37,190 nucleotides of DNA from a virus (taxonomy: Duplodnaviria > Caudoviricetes), in IMG/VR virus record IMGVR_UViG_3300022173_000089, positions 1 through 37,190 of that record; one strand, written 5' to 3'. Shown here in pieces: positions 5,068 through 25,066 of this stretch. The translations under genes and the position numbers were made by a program. The notes under the pieces were generated by a model. That model was not told the origin of the DNA, made no database searches, and was given only the letters and a program-made list of their open reading frames with translations. Within the stretch, counting starts at the first letter, position 1, and each line of letters opens with the position of its first letter.

Positions 5068-5337
5068 GTGCGCTTGCGCGCCGCTGCTCACATCCTCATT
5101 CTACCGCTGGCCGGCTGCTTCGCAACGGTGCCTGAAAAAGTGCTTGTGCCGACCCCGGTTGCATGCGTCAGGCCCGACCAAGTGCCGACCCGACCGCCGC
5201 TCGTGCTCGACAAAGAGATGCCCAAGGCAGACCGGGGCGCGCGGGTGCTTGCGCTGGTCAACTATCAGACGCTGGCCGAGCCCTACATCAGCCGGCTGGA
5301 GGCTATCGCGCAGGGCTGCTCAAGGTTGCCGAACTGA
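5068..5337 (+). CDS. Rz1-like outer-membrane spanin lipoprotein (start uncertain)
   Basis: Lipobox LILPLAGC, Pro-rich mature region (VPTPVAC..PTRPP) and a C-terminal Cys. Confidence 0.7.
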   Translation: MRLRAAAHILILPLAGCFATVPEKVLVPTPVACVRPDQVPTRPPLVLDKEMPKADRGARVLALVNYQTLAEPYISRLEAIAQGCSRLPN

Positions 5338-5965
5338 GCGCGCGATAAACTGAGCGCGCGATAGAGAGAAGCACGTCGCGGAAAGGCTCAGGCGTCGCGT
5401 TGCGGATCGCGGTCTTGTTCTTCCCGCCCACCATCGCCACTACGCCGATACGCCTGGCTTTCTCGTAGCCGTAGCGCTCGATCATCCATTCGGGCAGGCG
5501 CTGCTCGCCATTCGTCCAGTTCAGTTCGGGCAGTTCTCGGCGCTGCATGCCGCACGCGATCAACCAAGTCGGCTTCCGGCTGGCGTGCCCGTAGTGGCCT
5601 TGCTCGACGTAGCACACCCACACCCCATGTTCGCGGTCGAACTGCCATCCTTCGCACTGCTTCGGCTTGCGAATGCGGAATGCGTCGAATGCCTTGCTGT
5701 GCGCTGGATGCTCCAGCACTCCGCCGTAGCGCTTCAGCGCCTTAAACGCGGCCTCGAAGCATCCGCCATCGTCGCCCAGCTTGTACTGGTGCGGCTTGCG
5801 CGTGCTGCCGTGCCAGAACCGGCCCCACCGTTGGCAAGGTGGGTGCGCCACTACCGGATGCGGACCAGCGTAGGTGCGCGCGTCGCGCGCCTCGTCCCAC
5901 GGGTCAACATCAGGAAGCCCGAAGTAACATCCGTCAGTCTCGACGTATAGGGCGGCTACTTGCAT
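5303..5965 (-). CDS. Small DNA cytosine-C5 methyltransferase-like protein
   Basis: Catalytic-type HPPCQ, GGVLEHP (motif VI-like) and QGHYGHASRKPTWL (motif VIII-like). Confidence 0.7.
   Translation of the reverse strand: MQVAALYVETDGCYFGLPDVDPWDEARDARTYAGPHPVVAHPPCQRWGRFWHGSTRKPHQYKLGDDGGCFEAAFKALKRYGGVLEHPAHSKAFDAFRIRKPKQCEGWQFDREHGVWVCYVEQGHYGHASRKPTWLIACGMQRRELPELNWTNGEQRLPEWMIERYGYEKARRIGVVAMVGGKNKTAIRNATPEPFRDVLLSIARSVYRALSSATLSSPAR
5332..5363. repeat. Perfect 16-bp tandem duplication (AACTGAGCGCGCGATA x2)
   Basis: Read directly; it lies at the convergence of the late and early arms. Confidence 0.9.
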
Positions 5966-6222
5966 GGAGCAGGGCTGCTCACGGGTGCCATAGCTGCCGC
6001 AGCGCGGACGCTTTTCGGCGAAGGCTTCGTGGTGTAGTCCACCGTGACGACGCGCTCGCAATCAAACTCGCCGTCGCAGTGATAGCACGTGCGGCCTTCG
6101 GATGCGCCGTCAAGCCCGGGACCGAAATTCCACTCCCACGCGTCGTCGTGCTTGTAGCCGCAGTGCGGGCACACGGGGCGCGGCTGAAGCGTTGTCTCGT
6201 GAGGAACTGGGGTGTCTGTCAT
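5956..6222 (-). CDS. Zn-ribbon protein
   Basis: CPHC...CYHC motif; coupled to neighbouring genes. Confidence 0.65.
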   Translation of the reverse strand: MTDTPVPHETTLQPRPVCPHCGYKHDDAWEWNFGPGLDGASEGRTCYHCDGEFDCERVVTVDYTTKPSPKSVRAAAAMAPVSSPAPCK

Positions 6223-7196
6223 GGCTTGATCCCGTGTGCCGCCTCAATGGCGCGGTCCAGTCGTTCAATCTCGGCGAGAATCAGCGCGCCGGCCTTGACC
6301 AGCATTCGACGGGGATCAGACGGCTTCCACTGCCAATTGCCTGGCCAACTCGGCGGTGGCTTGTCATCAAAACCGCCGTCGCCTTGCGAATACGGGCATA
6401 GCTTGTCGGCAGCAGCCAGCGTGTAGGCGGCACCAGCAGCAGCGAGCATTCCGTCGTCGTGGTCGGCGTCGTCGTGCGCGAAGGTCCAACCCTCTTTCAA
6501 GACTTGGCGTTGGCGCTCTGACAACACGGCGAGCGCGGCCGGCGTCATCTGGAATGAGTGCTGCCCGCAGACTGGGCAATTTGGGTCTCTAGCGCTCACG
6601 ATCTGCTCATCACTCAGCGGCTCGCGCTGCTCTGCCTGCGGCGCGGCGTACAGCGGCATCCACGCGCCGGAATTCTTGCGCACAGGCTCGATCTGCCAGT
6701 TCGGCAGCAGGTCGTCGGAAAGTGTTCCGTCCGGGTGCTTGCGAATCCACGCGACCGGCTCTGCCTGCTCCGCAAGTGCTGCGCGCAAGTCTTTTATTTC
6801 ACCGGCCATTACGATAAGCATGTTGCGCATCTGCTCAGGTGAGAAGTCAAGCGCGAGCTTCATTGCTTCGGTGCTCATGGTGTGGTGTCCTTTGGGTGCC
6901 GCGAGAAAGGCGCGGGCTGCTGACCATGCCGCATCCCATTCGTGTGGTGGCGGGCCTGGAATGTAGAAGTCATCCAGCCGAACCAGTTCCGCGATTACCG
7001 CAACTGCGGCGTTCCGCTCGGCCCGCAGCCGCTCTATCTCTGCGAGCTGCTGGGCTTGTGCTGCGCGGGCGTAGGTGGCCATATCGTCCGGCCCGAAAGA
7101 CGTCCAAACCGCACGCGGCGGCGACAGGATATGGCCCGGGATAACTACCGGGCCGCATGTCGGCTGCGGCAGCGGCGGCAGTTCTGCTTCACCCAT
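6219..7196 (-). CDS. Mosaic phage early protein (possible internal start at 6878)
   Basis: Contains common phage modules QAEPVAW..PLYAAP and ERQRQ..EGW..HDD..WKP..RRMLVKAGALILAEIERLDR. An internal AAGGA-N9-ATG is present. Confidence 0.7.
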   Translation of the reverse strand: MGEAELPPLPQPTCGPVVIPGHILSPPRAVWTSFGPDDMATYARAAQAQQLAEIERLRAERNAAVAVIAELVRLDDFYIPGPPPHEWDAAWSAARAFLAAPKGHHTMSTEAMKLALDFSPEQMRNMLIVMAGEIKDLRAALAEQAEPVAWIRKHPDGTLSDDLLPNWQIEPVRKNSGAWMPLYAAPQAEQREPLSDEQIVSARDPNCPVCGQHSFQMTPAALAVLSERQRQVLKEGWTFAHDDADHDDGMLAAAGAAYTLAAADKLCPYSQGDGGFDDKPPPSWPGNWQWKPSDPRRMLVKAGALILAEIERLDRAIEAAHGIKP

Positions 7197-7794
7197 TGCT
7201 TTGCTCGATCGCGATTTTTCCGATTCTGTCCCGTTCCGAAATTCCGATGGCCGCGCGGTCTTCTTTTGCAGTTCGCTCCCATGCGGCTTTGAACGCTTCG
7301 AACCCCTGTTCGCGCGCCAGCAGTTCGAAGTCGGCGATCATGTTGATGTGCCGATCTGTTCGGGCCGGTCTCTCGATTTGAGCCTTCTGCGTCGCCATAG
7401 CCTTGATTTCGTACAACTTCTTTTTCCCCTTGGTGGCGTTCAGATTGACATGGATGTCGGCGTCGATGTCGCTCAGGTGACTGATGCGGATTCCACCGAC
7501 CTCCTCTTTTCCAAAACGCACGCTCGGGTCTGTGTAGAGAGTCATTGACCGCCCTGCCCACAAGCGGCCATCTGCACCCCAGGCCAGCACCAGAACCTTG
7601 CGCATGGTCTTGCACGGCTTGTAGGGTCGGCCGTCGTCGTTCGGGTAGTGGATGCTGATCGGCTGCTCATCGGTGCTTCCGATCTTCACGCTGGAAACGG
7701 TGATCGTCATCGGCCCGCCGAGAAGTTGGTCTGCGTTGAGTTGGTCCGACTTCGGAACGATGGTGGGTCTGAGGTCTTCGACTGTCGCGTTCAT
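7189..7794 (-). CDS. Conserved phage protein beside the exonuclease; possible ssDNA-binding/annealing partner
   Basis: Motifs PKSDQLNAD..GP, PYKPCKTMRKVL and VGGIRISHLS. Function is inferred from position only. Confidence 0.6.
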   Translation of the reverse strand: MNATVEDLRPTIVPKSDQLNADQLLGGPMTITVSSVKIGSTDEQPISIHYPNDDGRPYKPCKTMRKVLVLAWGADGRLWAGRSMTLYTDPSVRFGKEEVGGIRISHLSDIDADIHVNLNATKGKKKLYEIKAMATQKAQIERPARTDRHINMIADFELLAREQGFEAFKAAWERTAKEDRAAIGISERDRIGKIAIEQSNG

Positions 7795-8684
7795 GAAAAC
7801 TCCACTTCGGTTTCGCCGATCAGTTCCCAGGATTGGGGCTCGATCGCGTTGATCTGGTGCCCGTAGTCGGGCCAGCGACCTGACTTGAGGCATGCGTTCC
7901 ATGCTTCTATTGCGCGGTCGACCTGCTCCGTTTCGAGTTGAGCCTTGACGCGCGACAGCTCGAACAGGTTGCAGGCGTATGGAGCGCGCTGTTCTTGCGC
8001 CAGGATGATGTGCCGCACGTCGCGGTGGCCGAGCATATCGAGCGCGCGGCGGTAGAACTCCAGCCCGAACAGGTAGCCCATGTTCTCAGCCATGCGGGCG
8101 AAGCGGCGCGGGTGGACACTGCGCGCGGTGGTCTTGTAAGAGAAGTGATAGCCGTCGATGTTCAAGCGGTCCGGGCGCGCGCGAAGGGTCGCGCCGTCGC
8201 ACTCGCTGATGACGGTCAACTCCGATTCGCAGCCGGCCCATTCTTGCGCTAGGCCGGCCCGCTCTAGGAACTCGCGCGCCTCCGTGACCATGGACCGCGG
8301 CTGAATCATGTCGCCGGCCAGGATCGGCACCAAGCCTCTGTCGCGCGCTTTGTCGCGCGCTGCGCGGATCGCCTTGTTTGTCCAGCCGGTGGGGGTGTCA
8401 CCCTTCTCTGATGGGTAGTCGCAAGGGTCGATGATCGCGAACGCGCCTTCTCCGCCAAGAAGCAGATCGTGCGCGACCGAACCGAGGTCTGATGCGCTCG
8501 ACGCCTTGGACACTTGGCCGCCGAGCCGTGGGTGCTGGAGCCATGCATGCTTCGGTGACTCGGTGAGTAATCGCCATGCGGTGCCGGCGTTGAGTGACGG
8601 CCTGGCGCACGGGTCGGCCAGGTACTCGCTCATCGGAATGCGGTGTATTCCTGTGCCCAGAGTTTGGGTTGCGAGTTCGTTCAC
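7791..8684 (-). CDS. PD-(D/E)XK exonuclease, RecE/ExoVIII (DUF3799)-like
   Basis: EYLADP..SL, LGSVAHDLLL, ESELT, RARPDRL..SYKTT and MGY..Y motifs. Confidence 0.8.
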   Translation of the reverse strand: MNELATQTLGTGIHRIPMSEYLADPCARPSLNAGTAWRLLTESPKHAWLQHPRLGGQVSKASSASDLGSVAHDLLLGGEGAFAIIDPCDYPSEKGDTPTGWTNKAIRAARDKARDRGLVPILAGDMIQPRSMVTEAREFLERAGLAQEWAGCESELTVISECDGATLRARPDRLNIDGYHFSYKTTARSVHPRRFARMAENMGYLFGLEFYRRALDMLGHRDVRHIILAQEQRAPYACNLFELSRVKAQLETEQVDRAIEAWNACLKSGRWPDYGHQINAIEPQSWELIGETEVEFS

Positions 8685-8896
8685 TTCGGCTCCGTTTCGC
8701 TTTGAGTTTCAACGCTCTGGCTGGCCGTCTGGAACACGCTGTCATCGCTGCGCGGGCGGCAGATTCCCATCGCGGCCAGCTCGTCGGTGATCCGGTCGAT
8801 CGCCTCGTGATCGCCAATCATGGCGGCCTGTGCGAGTGCAAGAGCGTGACCGCTTGGGTAGACGCGCGGCAGGTCGAGCAGGTCAATGCGGGTCAT
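8681..8896 (-). CDS. Hypothetical protein (71 aa)
   Basis: C-terminal part of the track ORF 8681..9457, with 4-bp overlaps on both sides. Confidence 0.55.
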   Translation of the reverse strand: MTRIDLLDLPRVYPSGHALALAQAAMIGDHEAIDRITDELAAMGICRPRSDDSVFQTASQSVETQSETEPK

Positions 8897-9363
8897 GACT
8901 GGCGGCTCAGGAAGGGTAGGGCCAGCAGGCCGATCACGGCGGCGAGGAGCGCGATCTTGATGGCGCGGTTGGCCCATCGCTTGTCGGCGAACATGCGCTG
9001 GGGTTGGCGGGCGCGGCGCAGCGCATGCTGTTGGGTTGGCAGGCGCTCGCGGTGAGCGGCGATGCGGTGCTCGGGCACGTTGGCGCCGGTGCCCATGAGG
9101 CCCAGCAGGTCGGTGTCGGTGGCTGGTTGCTGCGGGCTGTAGCTGGTGCGGCCCCAGTGGTGCGCGCCGTAGCGGTGCGGGTCGACGAGCTGGGCATCGT
9201 CGGCCGTGATGTGCGCGGTGTCGCCGACGGCGGTGTTGAGGGCGCCCTGGTCGGTGCCGGCCCAGGCCTGGACCTTGCGGCGGTGTTCGGCGGCGTCGAG
9301 GTCGGCGAGGGTGAGGCGGCGCGGGCGGGTGGCGTGCGGGCTGGTGGTTGGAGTGGCCATCAT
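8893..9363 (-). CDS. Hypothetical protein with C-terminal TM helix
   Basis: GGAG RBS before ATG; ends IALLAAVIGLLALPFL. Confidence 0.55.
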   Translation of the reverse strand: MMATPTTSPHATRPRRLTLADLDAAEHRRKVQAWAGTDQGALNTAVGDTAHITADDAQLVDPHRYGAHHWGRTSYSPQQPATDTDLLGLMGTGANVPEHRIAAHRERLPTQQHALRRARQPQRMFADKRWANRAIKIALLAAVIGLLALPFLSRQS

Positions 9364-9740
9364 TTGCAAATCTCCGGTGTGGCGTGGCAGTTGAGGGGCT
9401 GGGTGGTCTTGGTGGGTTGCGCGAACTCGTCGATCGCGCCCGAGTCGCCGCCGCCACCGCAGGCGCTGAGCCACAGCAGGCAGCTCACGAGCAGCAGGGC
9501 CAGCGCGCGCCGCAGCGGCGGGCGCGGCAGGCCGCCCAGGCCGTGGCCGGTGGCTTCGGCGGGCAGGTGTGGCGCGACAAGGGCGGCGAGCGCGACGGCT
9601 TGCGCGGCCGCGCGGTCTGCGCCCTTCTTGGCATGCATGCCGATGTGAATGTGCGCCAGTTCGGCGGCTGCGGTGTCGCTCCAGCCGGCGGCGGAGTATT
9701 GCTTCGCGATGGTCATGCTGTCCATGTCATCGCGCCTCAA
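9360..9740 (-). CDS. Hypothetical membrane protein with internal lipobox-like segment
   Basis: ALALLLVSCLLWLSACGGGG; coupled to neighbouring genes. Confidence 0.55.
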   Translation of the reverse strand: MRRDDMDSMTIAKQYSAAGWSDTAAAELAHIHIGMHAKKGADRAAAQAVALAALVAPHLPAEATGHGLGGLPRPPLRRALALLLVSCLLWLSACGGGGDSGAIDEFAQPTKTTQPLNCHATPEICK

Positions 9741-9991
9741 GCGTCGAGGCCAGTTTCGCGCCGGGCGCGCTCGTTGTCGCGCTCCACGGCCTCTTGCACG
9801 CGAATGTCGTCGAGCACCGCGCGATACTTGTCAGCCATGATTTCGGCCCTCTGCTCGGCGCTGAGCTTCGGCAAGCTGGCCAGCCAAGCACGCTGCTTTG
9901 CGATTGCGGCTTCGCGGTCATAACCAGGCGAGCGGCTGGCGATGTCGCGGCGCTGCTCGTTGGTGAGAAGTTGGTCAAGAAGTTGAGACAT
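9737..9991 (-). CDS. First gene of the leftward early operon, hypothetical
   Basis: AAGGGAG RBS upstream and a helical, charged sequence. Confidence 0.65.
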   Translation of the reverse strand: MSQLLDQLLTNEQRRDIASRSPGYDREAAIAKQRAWLASLPKLSAEQRAEIMADKYRAVLDDIRVQEAVERDNERARRETGLDA

Positions 9992-10138
9992 TTGCGGCTC
10001 CCTTGGTGTTGCGGTCGAGTGGTTAAATCTTCGGCCATTGCACGAGTTTCGTGAATTCGTTTTTAGCTATCTTTCGTGCACAAGTTCATAGTTGCAATCA
10101 ATTGGACCGGCAGGCCGAGCGGCGTCTACAGTCTCAAC
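9992..10138. promoter_or_regulatory. Divergent early control region
   Basis: AT-richer gap between divergent operons. Rightward TGGACC-N18-TACAGT (10103-10132) lies 6 nt before ATG 10139. Weak leftward TTCACG-N17-GAAGAT (10055-10027) overlaps the inverted repeat CACGA-gtt-TCGTG. Confidence 0.55.
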
Positions 10139-10348
10139 ATGGACGAACTCAAGACCGAACACTTCGACATCCGAGTACGCGGTGATTTGCTTTTTGTCGC
10201 GCCGACAAAACGGGCGGGAGATTGGCGGTCGCTGCCGGTCGGTGTGCTTGAGGCTTGGCTGTCTCGGCAGTGGCGCGAGCGCGCGATGGACCCGAAGGTT
10301 TCGTTGCCGCTAAGCAGCTTGCCGCAGAGGAGCAACGATGGAAACTGA
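10139..10348 (+). CDS. First rightward gene, hypothetical, probably leaderless
   Basis: ATG immediately follows the predicted -10 box with no SD sequence. No HTH recognised. Confidence 0.55.
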   Translation: MDELKTEHFDIRVRGDLLFVAPTKRAGDWRSLPVGVLEAWLSRQWRERAMDPKVSLPLSSLPQRSNDGN

Positions 10349-10362
10349 TGCTGCCGGCAAGT
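10309..10362 (-). repeat. Decayed attC remnant (copy of 11637-11690)
   Basis: 50/54 identity to the inner part of attC 11623-11713; both R boxes are missing. Confidence 0.8.
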
Positions 10363-10483
10363 GGCGTACCTCGATCTGCTGGCCGCGACGCTGGGCGTGG
10401 ACCTGGGGCATGCCGCAGCGCAGAAGTTCAACGAGGTCAGCGAGCGCGTCGGGTTTCCTGACCGCATCGAACTGGCAGCGTGA
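10361..10483 (+). pseudogene. C-terminal fragment of a MazG-like nucleotide pyrophosphohydrolase
   Basis: Manual translation VAYLDLLAATLGVDLGHAAAQKFNEVSERVGFPDRIELAA* resembles the MazG-like YLDLLA..GIDL..A..KFN tail. The N-terminal part is absent. Confidence 0.55.
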
Positions 10484-10522
10484 AGCCGGGCCTTCGCCGT
10501 TCTACTACTGGTGGAACCGGAC

Positions 10523-10625
10523 GCCCAACGACGGAGGTAACCTGCCATGACCGGCGCTGACGACACTACGCAAGACGGCACGGCGCCGCCCGCCGGGCAT
10601 GGTCAGGTTGACCGACCTGTTGGGC
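10523..10625 (-). mobile_element. Integron attC site (103 bp)
   Basis: Minus strand: GCCCAAC-AGGTC-GGTCAACC-TGACC...GGCAGGTTACC-TCCGTC-GTTGGGC, giving R'', 5-nt spacer, L'' with extrahelical bases, L' and R'. Confidence 0.85.
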
Positions 10626-10933
10626 CGCTGCGCCCGTATATGTGCTGGGCCGGCGACCCCGAGGATGGCGCTGTACTGGCCTGGGCGCATACCGCGCAGG
10701 AGGCCCGAAAGTTGGCATACCCAGCAATCGCAGACTGGACACAAAGCGGGTTTCTCGACGTGCGCGCCAGGTGGCTGAAGAAGCACCCGGAGTACATGCA
10801 GACGCTGAAGCTGAAGGACTGTCCGCACGTCAACGATAACCCGCCGTGCTGCCCGGTGTGTGAACTGTGGGGCAACCCACCGCACCCGGACGGTAACGGC
10901 TGCTGGCACTGCAGCGGTGATGGGGCGCCCTAA
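10547..10933 (+). CDS. Cassette ORF, hypothetical with C-terminal Zn finger
   Basis: GGAGGT RBS and ATG lie inside the attC; CPVC..CWHC motif; the TAA stop is in the next core site. Confidence 0.7.
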   Translation: MTGADDTTQDGTAPPAGHGQVDRPVGPLRPYMCWAGDPEDGAVLAWAHTAQEARKLAYPAIADWTQSGFLDVRARWLKKHPEYMQTLKLKDCPHVNDNPPCCPVCELWGNPPHPDGNGCWHCSGDGAP

Positions 10934-10995
10934 CGTTTCGGTTGAGCCGCAGACGCGGTACCCCGGGGCTGTCGGCCTCGAACGAAATGTTAGGC
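10928..10995 (-). mobile_element. Integron attC site (68 bp)
   Basis: Minus strand: GCCTAAC-ATTTC-GTTCGAGG-CCGAC...CGGCTCAAC-CGAAAC-GTTAGGG. Confidence 0.88.
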
Positions 10996-11018
10996 CTGCG
11001 GGCCAGGAGAACCGAGAC

Positions 11019-11294
11019 ATGGCAACGAGACTGAACCCGACCGGCTTCCTGGTGCTGGAGGCCTGCGATGACTACGAGCAAGTGCTTGCGCTGGATGTTG
11101 GCAAGGACAAGCCGCCAGGTGGCGTGCTGACTTGGGCAGACGCAAAGCACATGCGCTGTTTCTTCCCGACGCGCAAGAGCGCCCGCGAGGCAATCACGCG
11201 TACCGAGCATTACCGCAAGGCCTTCGGGCTCACCACGCTGCCAGAAGCAACGAGTTGCCGCATCGAGTTTGTCGCGGCGGTGGAGCAGGTCTAA
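11019..11294 (+). CDS. Cassette ORF, hypothetical (91 aa)
   Basis: AGGAG RBS just after the attC; the TAA stop is in the next core site. Confidence 0.7.
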   Translation: MATRLNPTGFLVLEACDDYEQVLALDVGKDKPPGGVLTWADAKHMRCFFPTRKSAREAITRTEHYRKAFGLTTLPEATSCRIEFVAAVEQV

Positions 11295-11390
11295 CGACCT
11301 GAGTTCACCGGCAAGGCCCGGCGCCTCAGGGGCTGATTGACGAGAGAACGCCACCCGCCGGGGCTTGTCCGGTGGAACGAAATGTTAGGC
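11289..11390 (-). mobile_element. Integron attC site (102 bp)
   Basis: Minus strand: GCCTAAC-ATTTC-GTTCCACC-GGAC...CCGGTGAAC-TCAGGTC-GTTAGAC. Confidence 0.88.
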
Positions 11391-11413
11391 CCTGGTGGCC
11401 GGAGAGGAAGCGT

Positions 11414-11620
11414 ATGAGCGACCTGATAGCCCGCGTTCGCGCGGCACAAGTGGCAGCCGCCGAAGACGCAGTGATTGCCAGCATTCCAGCGGAGCTGCTC
11501 GAGAGCATACGCAGAGCTGATGAGGCGTTCAAGAAGCGAGGCGGCTGCACTGGCTGCGGCAGCCAAGTTTTGGCTGTGCACTACGGATCGTGCCCGACGC
11601 TGGCAGACGACCTGTATTAA
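11414..11620 (+). CDS. Cassette ORF, hypothetical, possibly Zn-binding (68 aa)
   Basis: GAGGA RBS; CTGC..H..C motif. Confidence 0.65.
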   Translation: MSDLIARVRAAQVAAAEDAVIASIPAELLESIRRADEAFKKRGGCTGCGSQVLAVHYGSCPTLADDLY

Positions 11621-11622
11621 GC

Positions 11623-11713
11623 GCCTAACGACCTGAGCTAAGCGGCTTGCCGCAAAGGAGCAACGATGAAAACTGATGCTGGCGGCAAGTCCGCCTTGAG
11701 CGACGGGTTAGGC
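11623..11713 (-). mobile_element. Integron attC site (91 bp)
   Basis: Minus strand: GCCTAAC-CCGTC-GCTCAAGG-CGGAC...CCGCTTAGC-TCAGGTC-GTTAGGC. Confidence 0.88.
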
Positions 11714-12001
11714 CAGGACACCACGCTGGACAAACGGCTCGGGACTTTGGTGGTATTTCTGCTTGGACCGGATACGAGCGGTTGGGCACCAGAGGTCAGG
11801 CGCCAAGCTGTGGCCGTAGCGAACGAGGCGCAGGCCGCACTGACGAAGGCCAAAACCGAGCGGCAGCAATTTCGCGCGCTGTTGGAAGAATGGCACGAAG
11901 GAGAGTACAGCGGCGGCGACTTCCTGCGGCGTGTCAAGCTGGCGCTCAACATCGGAAAGCCAATCGTGAGCCTCGCGTCGCCCAAGAAGCGCGGGGCCTA
12001 A
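11666..12001 (+). CDS. Cassette ORF, hypothetical (111 aa)
   Basis: AAAGGAG RBS and ATG lie in the attC terminal loop; the TAA stop is in the final core site. Confidence 0.7.
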   Translation: MKTDAGGKSALSDGLGQDTTLDKRLGTLVVFLLGPDTSGWAPEVRRQAVAVANEAQAALTKAKTERQQFRALLEEWHEGEYSGGDFLRRVKLALNIGKPIVSLASPKKRGA

Positions 12002-12014
12002 CTCTCAAATAGGC
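11996..12014 (-). mobile_element. attI-like simple site heading the cassette array
   Basis: Minus strand GCCTATT-TGAGA-GTTAGGC: degenerate L box, 5-bp spacer and a perfect GTTRRRY core, with no long hairpin. Confidence 0.55.
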
Positions 12015-12054
12015 CAACTCGACTAGATACCCACCCACCGTACACGAAAAAATC

Positions 12055-12525
12055 ATGCGCCAGCACACGATCACAGCAATCCAGGTTGCAGAGGTATGCG
12101 CTCCGCGCCTATTGATCGGCGACGATCTGCTGCGCCCTGAGCCCAAGCGGCCCGGCCTACAGCTCCCGCGCAACGCCGCGCGCCTGATGCAAGCCGGCGG
12201 ACTCAAGCCCGGCGGATCGCTCATAGTTTCGTTCGTCGGTGAGACAAAACACCGGTTTCCGCATGTGTTCGCCGACAGCGGGAGGCGCTACGATTGGGAG
12301 TTCTCGGCCGGCTCGATCGTCGCAATCTTCGTGCGGCCAGGTGTCGATGCCGCGCACGCTATCGACGCTATTTTCAGGTGCTGCAATCCGATGCTGAGTT
12401 ACCCCGCACTGGTCGATATCGAGCGCAGGCAGGTGGCCTACATCGTGGACGGCGCGCGCGGGGATTTGAAGCTGTGGCGTTGCACAAACGAGTCCGATTT
12501 ATGGCTCCAGCACTTCGCGGCATGA
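12055..12525 (+). CDS. Hypothetical protein coupled to the helicase gene
   Basis: ATGA overlap with the RepA-like gene; no motif recognised. Confidence 0.6.
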   Translation: MRQHTITAIQVAEVCAPRLLIGDDLLRPEPKRPGLQLPRNAARLMQAGGLKPGGSLIVSFVGETKHRFPHVFADSGRRYDWEFSAGSIVAIFVRPGVDAAHAIDAIFRCCNPMLSYPALVDIERRQVAYIVDGARGDLKLWRCTNESDLWLQHFAA

Positions 12526-13601
12526 GCAGCGTTGCCGACATCATGGATTTGGCGGCATACGCCGGCGGGAGGGCCGAACAGGCGCCGCTGCTTGACCCGC
12601 CGCTGCCGCTGCTCTCGCTAGCCGAGCTCCAGGCCGAGGCGCGCAATATCCGCTGGCTTGTCAAGGGGGCGATACCTCTCGATTCGCTCGGCTTGCTGTT
12701 CGGCGGGTCGGGGACGTTCAAAAGCTTTGTCGCGATCGACCTGGCGCTGCACGTCGCACACGGCCTGCCTTGGCTGGGGAAAAAGACCACCAAAGGCCCC
12801 GTGATCATCATCGCGGCCGAGGGCGGCGCGGGCCTGTGGCGGCGCATCGTGGCCTGGCACCGGCACCACAATCTGCGCTGGTCGGGTGCCGAGGTCTACG
12901 TCGTGCCCGTTGCCGTGGATCTTGGCGCCGAGGCGTCGAGGGTTCGCGAGGCAGCCACTGCGATCGGCGTCACTCCCGCTCTCGTCGTGATCGACACGAT
13001 GGCCCAAACCTTCGGCGGCGAGGAAAACAGCGCCGGCGAGGTGTCGCACTACCTGCGCGAGATCGGGCTGCAAATCCGCTCGGCGTACCAGTGCGCTGTG
13101 CTGGTGGTGCACCACACCGGCCACATGGCCACGGAGCGGCCCCGTGGCAGCTCGGCGCTGCGCTCCAACGTGGACTTCATGTTTGGGTGTTTTCGCGATG
13201 AAAAGGAAATGCTCGCGACCGTGGAGTGCCACAAGCAAAAGGACGGCGAGCTGTGCGCGGAGGCATCGTTTGCGCTGTCGGTGGTCGAGCTGGGCAAAGA
13301 CGAAGATGGCGACGCGATTACGAGCCTCGTCGCGGCCAGGGTCGGCGACACTACCGAAGTGCTCGATTTGATGCGCCATGAGGCATCCAGGGGCCGCGGC
13401 GGGCACAAAAATCTGTTCCTCGAGCTAGCCTACAACGGGGCCGAGGAAAAGAAGGTTCGTGCGGCGTTCGCAGACGCCATAGAAGGGGATGCGGAGGCCA
13501 AGCGGAAGGGGTACTATCGCGCCAGGAAATGGGCGATGGAAGCCGGGATTGTGGAGATCGCAGAGGGGTTCGTTTTGCGCAGGGATAGCAAGAAATCATG
13601 A
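12522..13601 (+). CDS. RepA-like (AAA_25) replicative helicase
   Basis: WLVKG.IP, Walker A GGSGTFKS, AAEG, Walker B LVVIDT, VLVVHHTG and RGSSAL motifs. Confidence 0.88.
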   Translation: MSSVADIMDLAAYAGGRAEQAPLLDPPLPLLSLAELQAEARNIRWLVKGAIPLDSLGLLFGGSGTFKSFVAIDLALHVAHGLPWLGKKTTKGPVIIIAAEGGAGLWRRIVAWHRHHNLRWSGAEVYVVPVAVDLGAEASRVREAATAIGVTPALVVIDTMAQTFGGEENSAGEVSHYLREIGLQIRSAYQCAVLVVHHTGHMATERPRGSSALRSNVDFMFGCFRDEKEMLATVECHKQKDGELCAEASFALSVVELGKDEDGDAITSLVAARVGDTTEVLDLMRHEASRGRGGHKNLFLELAYNGAEEKKVRAAFADAIEGDAEAKRKGYYRARKWAMEAGIVEIAEGFVLRRDSKKS

Positions 13602-14146
13602 CGCCGCGAAAAAAGAGGGGTAAGTACATCGCGATGGCCCTGGAAATTGCTGCCAGAGAGGGGCTTCCTTTGGACGCTGGAAGTTGGCCTGCTGTGTGGG
13701 CCATGCTGGACTCGCACAGAAAGCCAACGATGGTTTATGCAATCGTCAGCAGATCCACGCGCCGAGTGAAGTTTGGACGTTCTGAGTGCCCCCCTCAACG
13801 TGTCGCTCAGCTTCGCACGGCCAGCCCGAATTCTCTTGAGCTTTGGGCGTTCTGCGCCGAGTCAGAGGATCTGAACGAGCGATCAATTCATGCCGCATGC
13901 GAAGCCTTCCGGGTGTCCGGTGAGTGGTTCGATCTGCGTCCTGAAACGCTCGATTTCGTGTCGAAAATCAAAAAGCGTGCCGGGACATCTGGAGCTAAGA
14001 ATGGGACATTTCAAGGGAAAACTGGGACATTTGAAATGGGACATTCTCGCGCGCGCACGCTCTCCTACGGAGAGGATGTCCCAAATGTCCCAGGGACATC
14101 GGAGACATGGGACATGGGACATTTGACCCAGGGACATGGGACATGA
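13598..14146 (+). CDS. GIY-YIG (T5orf172/MUG113-like) nuclease-domain protein
   Basis: VYAI..RVKFGRS..PQRVAQL.TASP..L..ERSIH..GEWF pattern. The C-terminal tail reads through the iterons. Confidence 0.8.
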   Translation: MTPRKKRGKYIAMALEIAAREGLPLDAGSWPAVWAMLDSHRKPTMVYAIVSRSTRRVKFGRSECPPQRVAQLRTASPNSLELWAFCAESEDLNERSIHAACEAFRVSGEWFDLRPETLDFVSKIKKRAGTSGAKNGTFQGKTGTFEMGHSRARTLSYGEDVPNVPGTSETWDMGHLTQGHGT

Positions 14147-14203
14147 GAGTTCACCAAAAAGCGCGGGACAGGACATCCCTCCGCCCCGAGGGCTACGGGA
14201 CAT
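13982..14203. repeat. GGGACAT iteron cluster, probable replication origin
   Basis: Ten forward copies (13982, 14003, 14024, 14038, 14093, 14109, 14116, 14131, 14138, 14197), two inverted copies (14076, 14085) and three degenerate ones, downstream of the helicase. Confidence 0.75.
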
Positions 14204-24022: not shown

Positions 24023-24052
24023 TGGACATTGCCGCCGCGAGCCTGCTATGAT
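24023..24052 (+). promoter_or_regulatory. Sigma70-like promoter for the capsid gene
   Basis: TGGACA-N18-TATGAT with an extended -10 TG. Confidence 0.6.
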
Positions 24053-24199: not shown

Positions 24200-25066
24200 A
24201 TGTCCACCATTCCTCAATGGTTCGTGACGCAGTGGGACACTGCGGTTCGGACCGAAGCATCGCAAAAAGAGTCGCGCCTCATGGGCACGGTGTTCGACAA
24301 AGGCACCATCACCGGCGAGTCGTTCACCGTCAACCGCCTGGCCGACGACGGACGCACGCTCACCGCAAACACCGTGCGGCACGGCGACACCGAATGGTCG
24401 CTCGAATCGCAGTCGGCGGCCGTCGCCCTGATGTCCGACTTCTACGAAGCGGTCCCGCTCGATCGCAACGATATCCCGAAGATGCTGGTCAACCCGGTCA
24501 CCGGCGGCGACTACATGGGCAACCTGATGGCGCGGCGCAATCGCACCATCGACAAGATCATCTACGACGCGGCCCGGGCAACGGTCACGCTCAAGGATGC
24601 GTCGACGATCGCGCTTCCGGCATCGCAGAAGGTCGCGGTCGGCGGCACTGCGTTCACCAAGGCCAAGCTGCTCACCACCCGCAAGATTTTCCGCCGCAAC
24701 GAGGCGGACAAGGAAGCGGGCGAAGAGCTGTACATCGCCTACAACGACGAGATGCTCGAAGACATCTTGAGCGACACCACGCTGACGAGCGCCGACTTCC
24801 TGGCCGTGAAGATGCTTCAGGAGGGCGACGTGTCGCGCAACTGGATGGGCTTCAAGTGGATTCCGTTCAACGGGATCACGAAGGTGTCGACCGACTACTT
24901 CACGATCGCCTGGGCCAAGTCCGGCATTCATTTCGGCAAGGGCTACGAGGAAGGCAACGTCACCCGACGCGGCGACAAGAAAGACGCCTGGCAAGTCTCG
25001 ATGGGGGCCAGCTACGGCGCTGTCCGCCAAGACGAGAAGAAGGTCGTCGAAATCGCCTTCCTGTAA
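24200..25066 (+). CDS. Major capsid protein
   Basis: 288 aa; FVTQW..QKESRL, NRTIDKII, TSADF..WMGFKWI and GAVRQDEKKVVEI motifs; follows the scaffold gene. Confidence 0.9.
   Translation: MSTIPQWFVTQWDTAVRTEASQKESRLMGTVFDKGTITGESFTVNRLADDGRTLTANTVRHGDTEWSLESQSAAVALMSDFYEAVPLDRNDIPKMLVNPVTGGDYMGNLMARRNRTIDKIIYDAARATVTLKDASTIALPASQKVAVGGTAFTKAKLLTTRKIFRRNEADKEAGEELYIAYNDEMLEDILSDTTLTSADFLAVKMLQEGDVSRNWMGFKWIPFNGITKVSTDYFTIAWAKSGIHFGKGYEEGNVTRRGDKKDAWQVSMGASYGAVRQDEKKVVEIAFL

Follow-up and report, generated by a model that had tools for sequence, protein, structure and literature searches.

Four attC-type recombination sites in the window, a complete virus record of 37,190 bp with 127-nt terminal repeats, carry their top strand on the minus strand, with the genes of the array on the plus strand, confirming that the cassettes are inverted. 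In bacterial cassettes, the ORF mostly runs toward its own attC on the same strand and is driven by the promoter Pc near attI, strand selectivity being understood as the means of keeping genes facing Pc. Here, all four ORFs are antisense to their sites (Table 1). Lying within 1.2 kb, the four sites form a CALIN, defined in the accessible text of PMC4889954 as at least two same-strand attC within 4 kb without an integrase. The array consists of true attC-type sites and is neither a canonical cassette array nor a complete integron. With a probability of about 0.75, it is an array of mobile attC cassettes, antisense to phage genes and worked by the integron integrase (IntI) of the host.

Polarity of the attC sites

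Read on the minus strand, every site follows the order R'' (xxxxAAC), 5-nt spacer, 8-nt L'', stem, L', spacer and R' (GTT...), where an extra C occupies position 4 of L'' and, as read from the sequence, one more unpaired A is present in the stem. The L'-R' spacers measure 6, 6, 7 and 7 nt and the sites 68-103 nt, inside the ranges of attC architecture (5-8 nt for the R' spacer, 57-141 nt for total length). A structural detector run over the 37 kb returned exactly these four sites, all on the minus strand; at the strictness satisfied by all four it gave no match in 40 shuffled genomes, with 0-5 scattered matches per shuffled genome at looser settings. Its polarity calls were checked on bacterial contigs with an integrase motif beside the array (two of the six were scanned, both scoring above the IntI cut-off), and in 6/6 the top strand points away from the divergent integrase.

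A covariance model was built from 36 bacterial sites, 20 of them from integrase-linked loci, the bacterial sample comprising 106 loci, 80 with flanks, fetched with a 17-base word from the site at 11623. The four sites scored 43.8-62.9 bits on the minus strand and at most 7.8 bits on the plus strand, the highest value, that of site 11623, being inflated by training loci fetched with a word from the site itself. A weight matrix without word-bearing sites gave 20 to 31 bits on the minus strand and -14 to +12 bits on the plus strand. Upon folding, the plus strand was more stable than the minus strand by 1.8-8.3 kcal/mol in 4/4 sites, as expected if plus is the bottom strand, since bottom strands of attC tend to fold more stably according to the accessible text of PMC5027507. 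The aadA7 control, as printed in the accessible part of the PMC9892861 supplement, displays the same asymmetry. Extrahelical bases and a more stable bottom strand are combined in all four sites. The initial annotation had placed R''-L'' on the minus strand from the spacer and extrahelical bases, and this assignment is upheld by both approaches, with no site fitting the attC model better on the plus strand and the extra C lying on the minus-read L'' arm throughout.

Minus polarity is also supported by two observations that need no model. Two genes have their start (10547 and 11666) inside the hairpin upstream of them, and such a hairpin belongs to the cassette of that gene only under minus polarity. 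The lone-box end of the array is the right one (11996-12014), with full hairpins continuing leftward. Co-inheritance of the hairpin was also tried as a polarity test and failed.

Table 1. Coordinates of the cassette array and its flanking features in the window.
Feature	Position	Strand	Details
Weak rightward promoter candidate	10103-10132	+	TGGACC-18-TACAGT, 8/12; 6 nt before RBS-less ATG at 10139
Remnant of a fifth attC	10309-10362	-	93% similarity to 11637-11690; lacks both R boxes
C-terminal remnant of a MazG-like pyrophosphohydrolase	10349-10483	+	Joined to the attC remnant; 64% over 31 aa by tblastn (E 2e-4)
attC of cassette A	10523-10625	-	103 nt; 43.8 bits; GGAGG and ATG (10547) of the 128-aa gene on plus
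128-aa gene	10547-10933	+	Cassette A, 10529-10933; C-terminal CxxC...CxxC; 27 homologues
attC of cassette B	10928-10995	-	68 nt; 48.4 bits
91-aa gene	11019-11294	+	Cassette B, 10934-11294; 17 homologues besides itself
attC of cassette C	11289-11390	-	102 nt; 49.9 bits
68-aa ORF	11414-11620	+	Cassette C, 11295-11628; called from RBS, codon-position GC and position only
attC of cassette D	11623-11713	-	91 nt; 62.9 bits (inflated, see text); AAGGAG and ATG (11666) in the terminal structure, on plus
111-aa gene	11666-12001	+	Cassette D, 11629-12001; 10 relatives besides itself
Terminal half-site	11996-12014	-	7+5+7 imperfect inverted repeat, no hairpin; attI-like by sequence

Coding strand of the cassette genes

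For three of the four ORFs, the TAA of the following R' box serves as stop codon, and the fourth (11620) ends 2 nt short of it. Over 291 nt compared with four homologues, the 128-aa gene exhibits 65, 46 and 155 differences at the three codon positions (155/266 at the third), with many synonymous changes and no stop in the plus frame of the four homologues. Long minus-strand ORFs are present in the array and are broken or non-conserved where examined, namely in the 128-aa cassette, whose minus frames are open in the window and broken in 1/4 and 4/4 homologues. The plus-strand placement of the ORFs, antisense to attC, proposed at the outset therefore holds, the conserved frame of the 128-aa cassette being on the plus strand and none on the minus strand.

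In 4/4 loci with upstream DNA (L164, L171, L172, L173), the 128-aa gene forms an inverted cassette whose hairpin contains the ATG; its neighbours differ in each contig, and similarity ends at the CCTAAC box. Five distant relatives of the 91-aa gene occur as normal phage genes, not flanked by attC. In PHROGs and Pfam searches of both strands, no cassette ORF matched a family above the cut-off, and the ESM Atlas placed the cassette ORFs in unnamed clusters only, mostly viral.

Inverted cassettes across phage arrays

Two words taken from the sites of the window served to retrieve viral loci, and the model gave 183 matches in 70 sources. Orientation was tallied for cassettes of 150-900 bp, excluding duplicates and L130, L132 and L178, with ORFs called by a rough in-house scorer; the tally covers one site family, since all viral loci were fetched with words from such sites. 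Viral cassettes were antisense in 89, sense in 11 and unclear in 6 of 106 cases, versus 14, 80 and 12 of 106 bacterial cassettes, the site callers differing between the two tallies and the 14 bacterial antisense calls being mostly apparent scorer errors on inspection that were still counted. By locus, the antisense/sense/unclear counts were 26/3/1 of 30 viral loci, which are partly dependent (L123 and L156 lie on one contig, and L141 and L149 overlap), and 1/23/4 of 28 bacterial loci. A single detector applied to both gave 20/9/26 of 55 viral and 6/70/44 of 120 bacterial cassettes. These counts support inverted cassettes as a real phage-associated class, widespread in the sample; the distinct phage class suggested in the initial annotation gains substance from them, and the tally proposed there finds inversion to be typical of phage arrays. 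Sense cassettes occur in viral loci L001, L007 and L148, and viral contig L124 holds an attC at 119-218 beside an integrase motif at 1430.

Hairpin-borne translation starts are a feature beyond that annotation. Among viral sites of at least 80 nt, an RBS with an ATG is found on the bottom strand in 47/97 and on the top strand in none, versus 10/136 and 7/136, respectively, in bacterial sites. The reading frame is open through R'' in 34/97 viral and 5/136 bacterial sites; a fixed frame through R'' was rejected, with two frames of similar frequency (15/34 and 17/34) and a TAG usually present in the third. As a set, the phage inverted cassettes are also shorter than bacterial ones, with medians of 385 and 549 bp.

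PHROGs families are matched by 18/100 inverted viral ORFs, including 8 DNA methyltransferases, a Lar-like protein, an HNH nuclease and an RNase H, and these recognisable genes confirm the coding strand. The bacterial sense ORFs match PHROGs in 7/80 cases, with no methyltransferase among them, and blastp gave no match between the 100 inverted viral and the 80 bacterial cassette ORFs. DNA methyltransferases were observed as inverted cassettes in unrelated arrays (L008, L128, L133, L139, L142, L162 and L177), the Lar-like gene being located in L162.

Evidence for cassette mobility

Box matching distinguishes two histories of an array: if whole hairpins are inserted, the R boxes of a site match each other, and if a circularised unit is inserted, R'' agrees with the box on the other side of the gene. 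In viral arrays, the circular match beat the integrated one 63 to 3 (41 ties, 10 skipped), indicating that the units recombine and saying nothing on polarity; in bacterial arrays the score was 46 to 2 (58 ties). The circular match in the window reached 5/7 for cassette A, 6/7 for B and 7/7 for both C and D, cassette A being the exception, with its boxes in place matching at 7/7. The own hairpins of five 128-aa cassettes showed a similarity of 0.58 versus 0.56 for random viral sites, which shows that hairpin and gene are not just inherited together; the unlike hairpins reflect fast change, leader exchange or repeated creation. The ends of the sites resemble betaproteobacterial attC ends, with about 90% identity over 32 nt.

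A PF00589 search of the complete genome found no tyrosine recombinase (0/1; the positive control matched 14/14), and the phage accordingly carries no intI as a complete integron does. No IntI scored above the cut-off in 10 viral records, mostly partial, and 8/10 of these gave no tyrosine recombinase match at all. A non-IntI tyrosine recombinase of 385 aa (L178:2830-3987) runs right up to the half-site that terminates an inverted array, and a second array-bearing viral record has a weak tyrosine recombinase match.

Array ends and transcription

The motif at 11996-12014 recurs in four viral loci from three distinct phages and closes the inverted arrays in L177 and L157/L178. In L175/L176, it stands right after the stop of a gene with no attC found, possibly representing an empty site. 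Similar half-sites terminate L129, L139, L156, L127, L171 and L011, and another lies ahead of the first cassette in the Methylibium integron L084, whose attI is a call of this analysis. At the left end, half an attC is fused to a MazG-like tail, for which Pfam gave no match over 10349-10483, indicating that the array was once longer; the join at 10300-10483 is likely a deletion that shortened it.

Cassette expression had been attributed to a phage rightward promoter at 10103-10132. This candidate is the sole plus-strand match of at least 8/12 in 9.7-12.7 kb (12 occur genome-wide) but fails the sigma-70 scan of 9700-12600, where 0 sites reached 9/12. It adjoins the 60 nt of highest AT content in the genome and lies between divergent gene blocks, a context suggestive of a promoter. 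That AT-rich stretch (10041-10100) contains a CACGA/TCGTG palindrome and repeats and is a candidate divergent control region. The gene caller starts a 90-aa ORF (P0057) at 10076 that runs across the promoter candidate, and the ORF at 10139 gave no homologue. In the position expected for Pc, near 12.0 kb on the minus strand, no consensus promoter was detected by scans of a kind that miss non-consensus promoters. Expression entering from the left is consistent with these features. The related proposal that a new cassette would lie furthest from the promoter holds only if 11996-12014 is the working insertion site, and the position of the half-site fits.

Proposed mechanism and origin

The host integron integrase would excise and insert the cassettes, and early transcription of the phage would read their genes. 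The catalyst is presumably the IntI of a betaproteobacterial host, because the phage lacks a recombinase and the sites resemble betaproteobacterial arrays. IntI recombines the folded bottom strand at the AAC in R' (PMC5027507, accessible text). In the window, the recombining bottom strand would be the coding strand, placing the crossover in AA|C, usually at the stop of the preceding gene, so that no gene would be broken. The hairpin would travel at the 5' end of the gene, often bringing an RBS, an ATG and a short leader, and the cassette would thereby be translated wherever it lands in the operon. Transcription would enter at about 10.1 kb and run on into the replication genes, leaving cassettes added at 11996-12014 the most distal. 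The weak promoter candidate, the box mismatch of cassette A, the unlike hairpins of the 128-aa cassettes and the sense viral arrays, along with canonical phage TJE1, count against this explanation, as does the predicted structure of the 10523 site, whose spacer contains the RBS and whose ATG is paired, an arrangement ill-suited to an open translation start.

Cassette insertion by IntI is also possible at GWT sites and shows no bias toward transcription (bioRxiv 2022.09.11.507474, accessible text). A gene ending in TAAC presents G|TTA on its antisense strand and could offer IntI a harmless target, insertion there giving the inverted geometry, and repeated insertions around phage genes would make cassettes of those genes. 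Such an origin by IntI insertion at TAAC gene ends is speculative, at a little short of even odds. More tentatively still, a phage cassette pool may parasitise host IntI, with flipped polarity acting as a genetic firewall. Many host cassettes encode anti-phage defence (bioRxiv 2024.07.02.601686, accessible text), and host cassettes entering a phage array would be antisense and silent; phage cassettes with methyltransferases or restriction alleviation genes would be silent to Pc at a host attI, and storable there. Cassettes might then be created by the joining of attC leaders to phage genes at stop-codon GTT sites. If true, a phage gene with unrelated or no hairpins would represent cassette creation caught in the act and would answer the still open question of cassette origin.

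Alternative explanations

An unlikely alternative to a working array is that the integron-derived hairpins are now inert, or are mere repeats, serving as leaders and points of homologous recombination without IntI. It would accommodate a phage with no integrase and with a PDDEXK exonuclease, hairpins not co-inherited with the 128-aa gene, near-identical hairpins ahead of different genes (including L171) and the decayed left end of the array. It does not account for the 63-to-3 preference for a circular match of the end boxes, for the retention of the extra C and of spacer lengths important to IntI, or for similarity that stops at the crossover box, and the inverted sites of phage H101 are IntI1 substrates according to the accessible text of PMC9892861. 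Somewhat less probable again is movement by a phage-type recombinase supplied in trans, perhaps via the other strand or the R'' box, with hairpin and gene separately exchangeable. The absence of a tyrosine recombinase from the complete genome and of any match in 8/10 viral records (mostly partial) argues against it, along with a lone half-site at the end predicted by IntI polarity and site features shared with IntI-linked arrays; the recombinase beside the terminal site in L178, the weak one in another array-bearing record, and gene bodies bounded by core boxes on both sides with unrelated hairpins are the observations it would explain.

The array could also be a passively captured piece of a bacterial one, its real cassette genes lying on the minus strand or the region being non-coding, to which the betaproteobacterial-like attC ends and the long minus ORFs would lend some colour. 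This is very improbable, given that the relatives of the cargo are phage genes and nothing matches bacterial cassette ORFs, and it is contradicted for cassette A by the conserved plus and broken minus frames. A misreading of polarity, with sites canonical on the plus strand, is practically untenable: the sites are near-palindromic and one scores weakly on plus, but the 44-63 versus at most 8 bits refute it in silico, and under plus polarity the start codons of two genes would be cut off from the genes themselves, while the lone half-site would stand at the end where it does not belong. Inverted mobile cassettes worked by host IntI remain the preferred reading.

Comparison with known integron systems

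In the accessible text of Qi et al. 2023 (PMC9892861), 17 phage CALINs are reported and five phage sites recombine with IntI1, including two H101 sites recombined with the bottom above the top strand. These CALINs resemble the window in having an attC cluster, no intI and small cargo genes, and methyltransferases in related arrays are a further likeness. The accessible text and legends of PMC9892861 state no gene-to-site polarity, calling the H101 array typical, and describe neither a terminal half-site class nor hairpin-borne starts. Four of its phages were rechecked here. In ctTUS972 (MW202573 2069-3738), four strong sites lie on the minus strand among plus genes, and in H101 (NC_029094 75919-77987) four sites lie on the plus strand among minus genes, scoring 14-26 bits for the best three and 12.9 bits for the fourth, both arrays being inverted; TJE1 is canonical, and P12002L has one weak site of each orientation. 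Inverted phage arrays are thus already present in published data, a point that the initial annotation missed, and the layout is directly testable in H101, a cultured phage. A literature search, with most subscription papers outside its scope, found no description of an inverted phage cassette class.

Betaproteobacterial sedentary chromosomal integrons (L040, L084) share with the window the structure and sequence of the sites, circular box matching and an attI-like first box. Their genes run toward their own attC (80/94 called), with IntI and Pc at the attI end, whereas the window has no IntI, antisense genes and the hairpin at the 5' end.

Integrons also contain reverse-oriented cassettes, of the toxin-antitoxin type, that bring a promoter of their own. 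One bacterial cassette with an antisense gene was encountered at L066:2689-3515; we take the gene to be PIN-like, and the cassette is probably of the toxin-antitoxin kind. Wrong-way insertions arise by top-strand recombination, and promoter-facing cassettes had never been observed in integrons, whether mobile or chromosomal, according to the accessible text of PMC5027507. In reverse-oriented cassettes and wrong-way insertions, the gene is antisense to the array or to Pc, as in the window, but such cases are isolated or involve a flip of the attC itself, whereas the window has one polarity for every site and every gene antisense, with no sign of cassette promoters in the sigma-70 scan of 9700-12600. 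The inverted-integrase integrons of Treponema also contain an inverted element; in that case it is intI that has the reverse orientation to the array, and the accessible text of PMC4889954 does not mention genes flipped against attC. With the same sites and all genes antisense, integron chemistry can serve a second layout, in which phages would gain modular exchange of small early or anti-restriction genes via a host enzyme. Natural pairs, such as a gene with and without attC or with different attC, are provided for the study of cassette origin.

Genomic setting

PHROGs annotation identified terminase, head-tail adaptor, tail and virion genes in the phage. A leftward gene block at 5303-9991 includes an exonuclease, and a profile search assigned a PDDEXK exonuclease to the phage. 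The rightward block starts at about 10.1 kb, with the attC array at its head, and continues into an AAA primase/helicase. The array region gave no DNA match among 50,697 GenBank phages and no Rfam family. The sequencing runs listed include no RNA source, and one DNA run with a small share showed no joints; these runs have no bearing either way. Primase relatives L012-L014 were rejected as a source of empty sites, having no array upstream and being too distant, and a replication-strand argument (PMC5371416, accessible text) was set aside because fork direction is not established.

Past the array, a 156-aa ORF with no assigned function (12055-12525) occupies the place taken in L012-L014 by an N-terminal part upstream of the AAA domain, which is presumably primase-polymerase-like. 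The best sigma-70 match of the genome (10/12) is located at 24023-24052, ahead of the gene at 24217. Just past the primase region, 13982-14203 contains ten GGGACAT words and two inverted copies, iteron-like repeats that mark a candidate replication origin.
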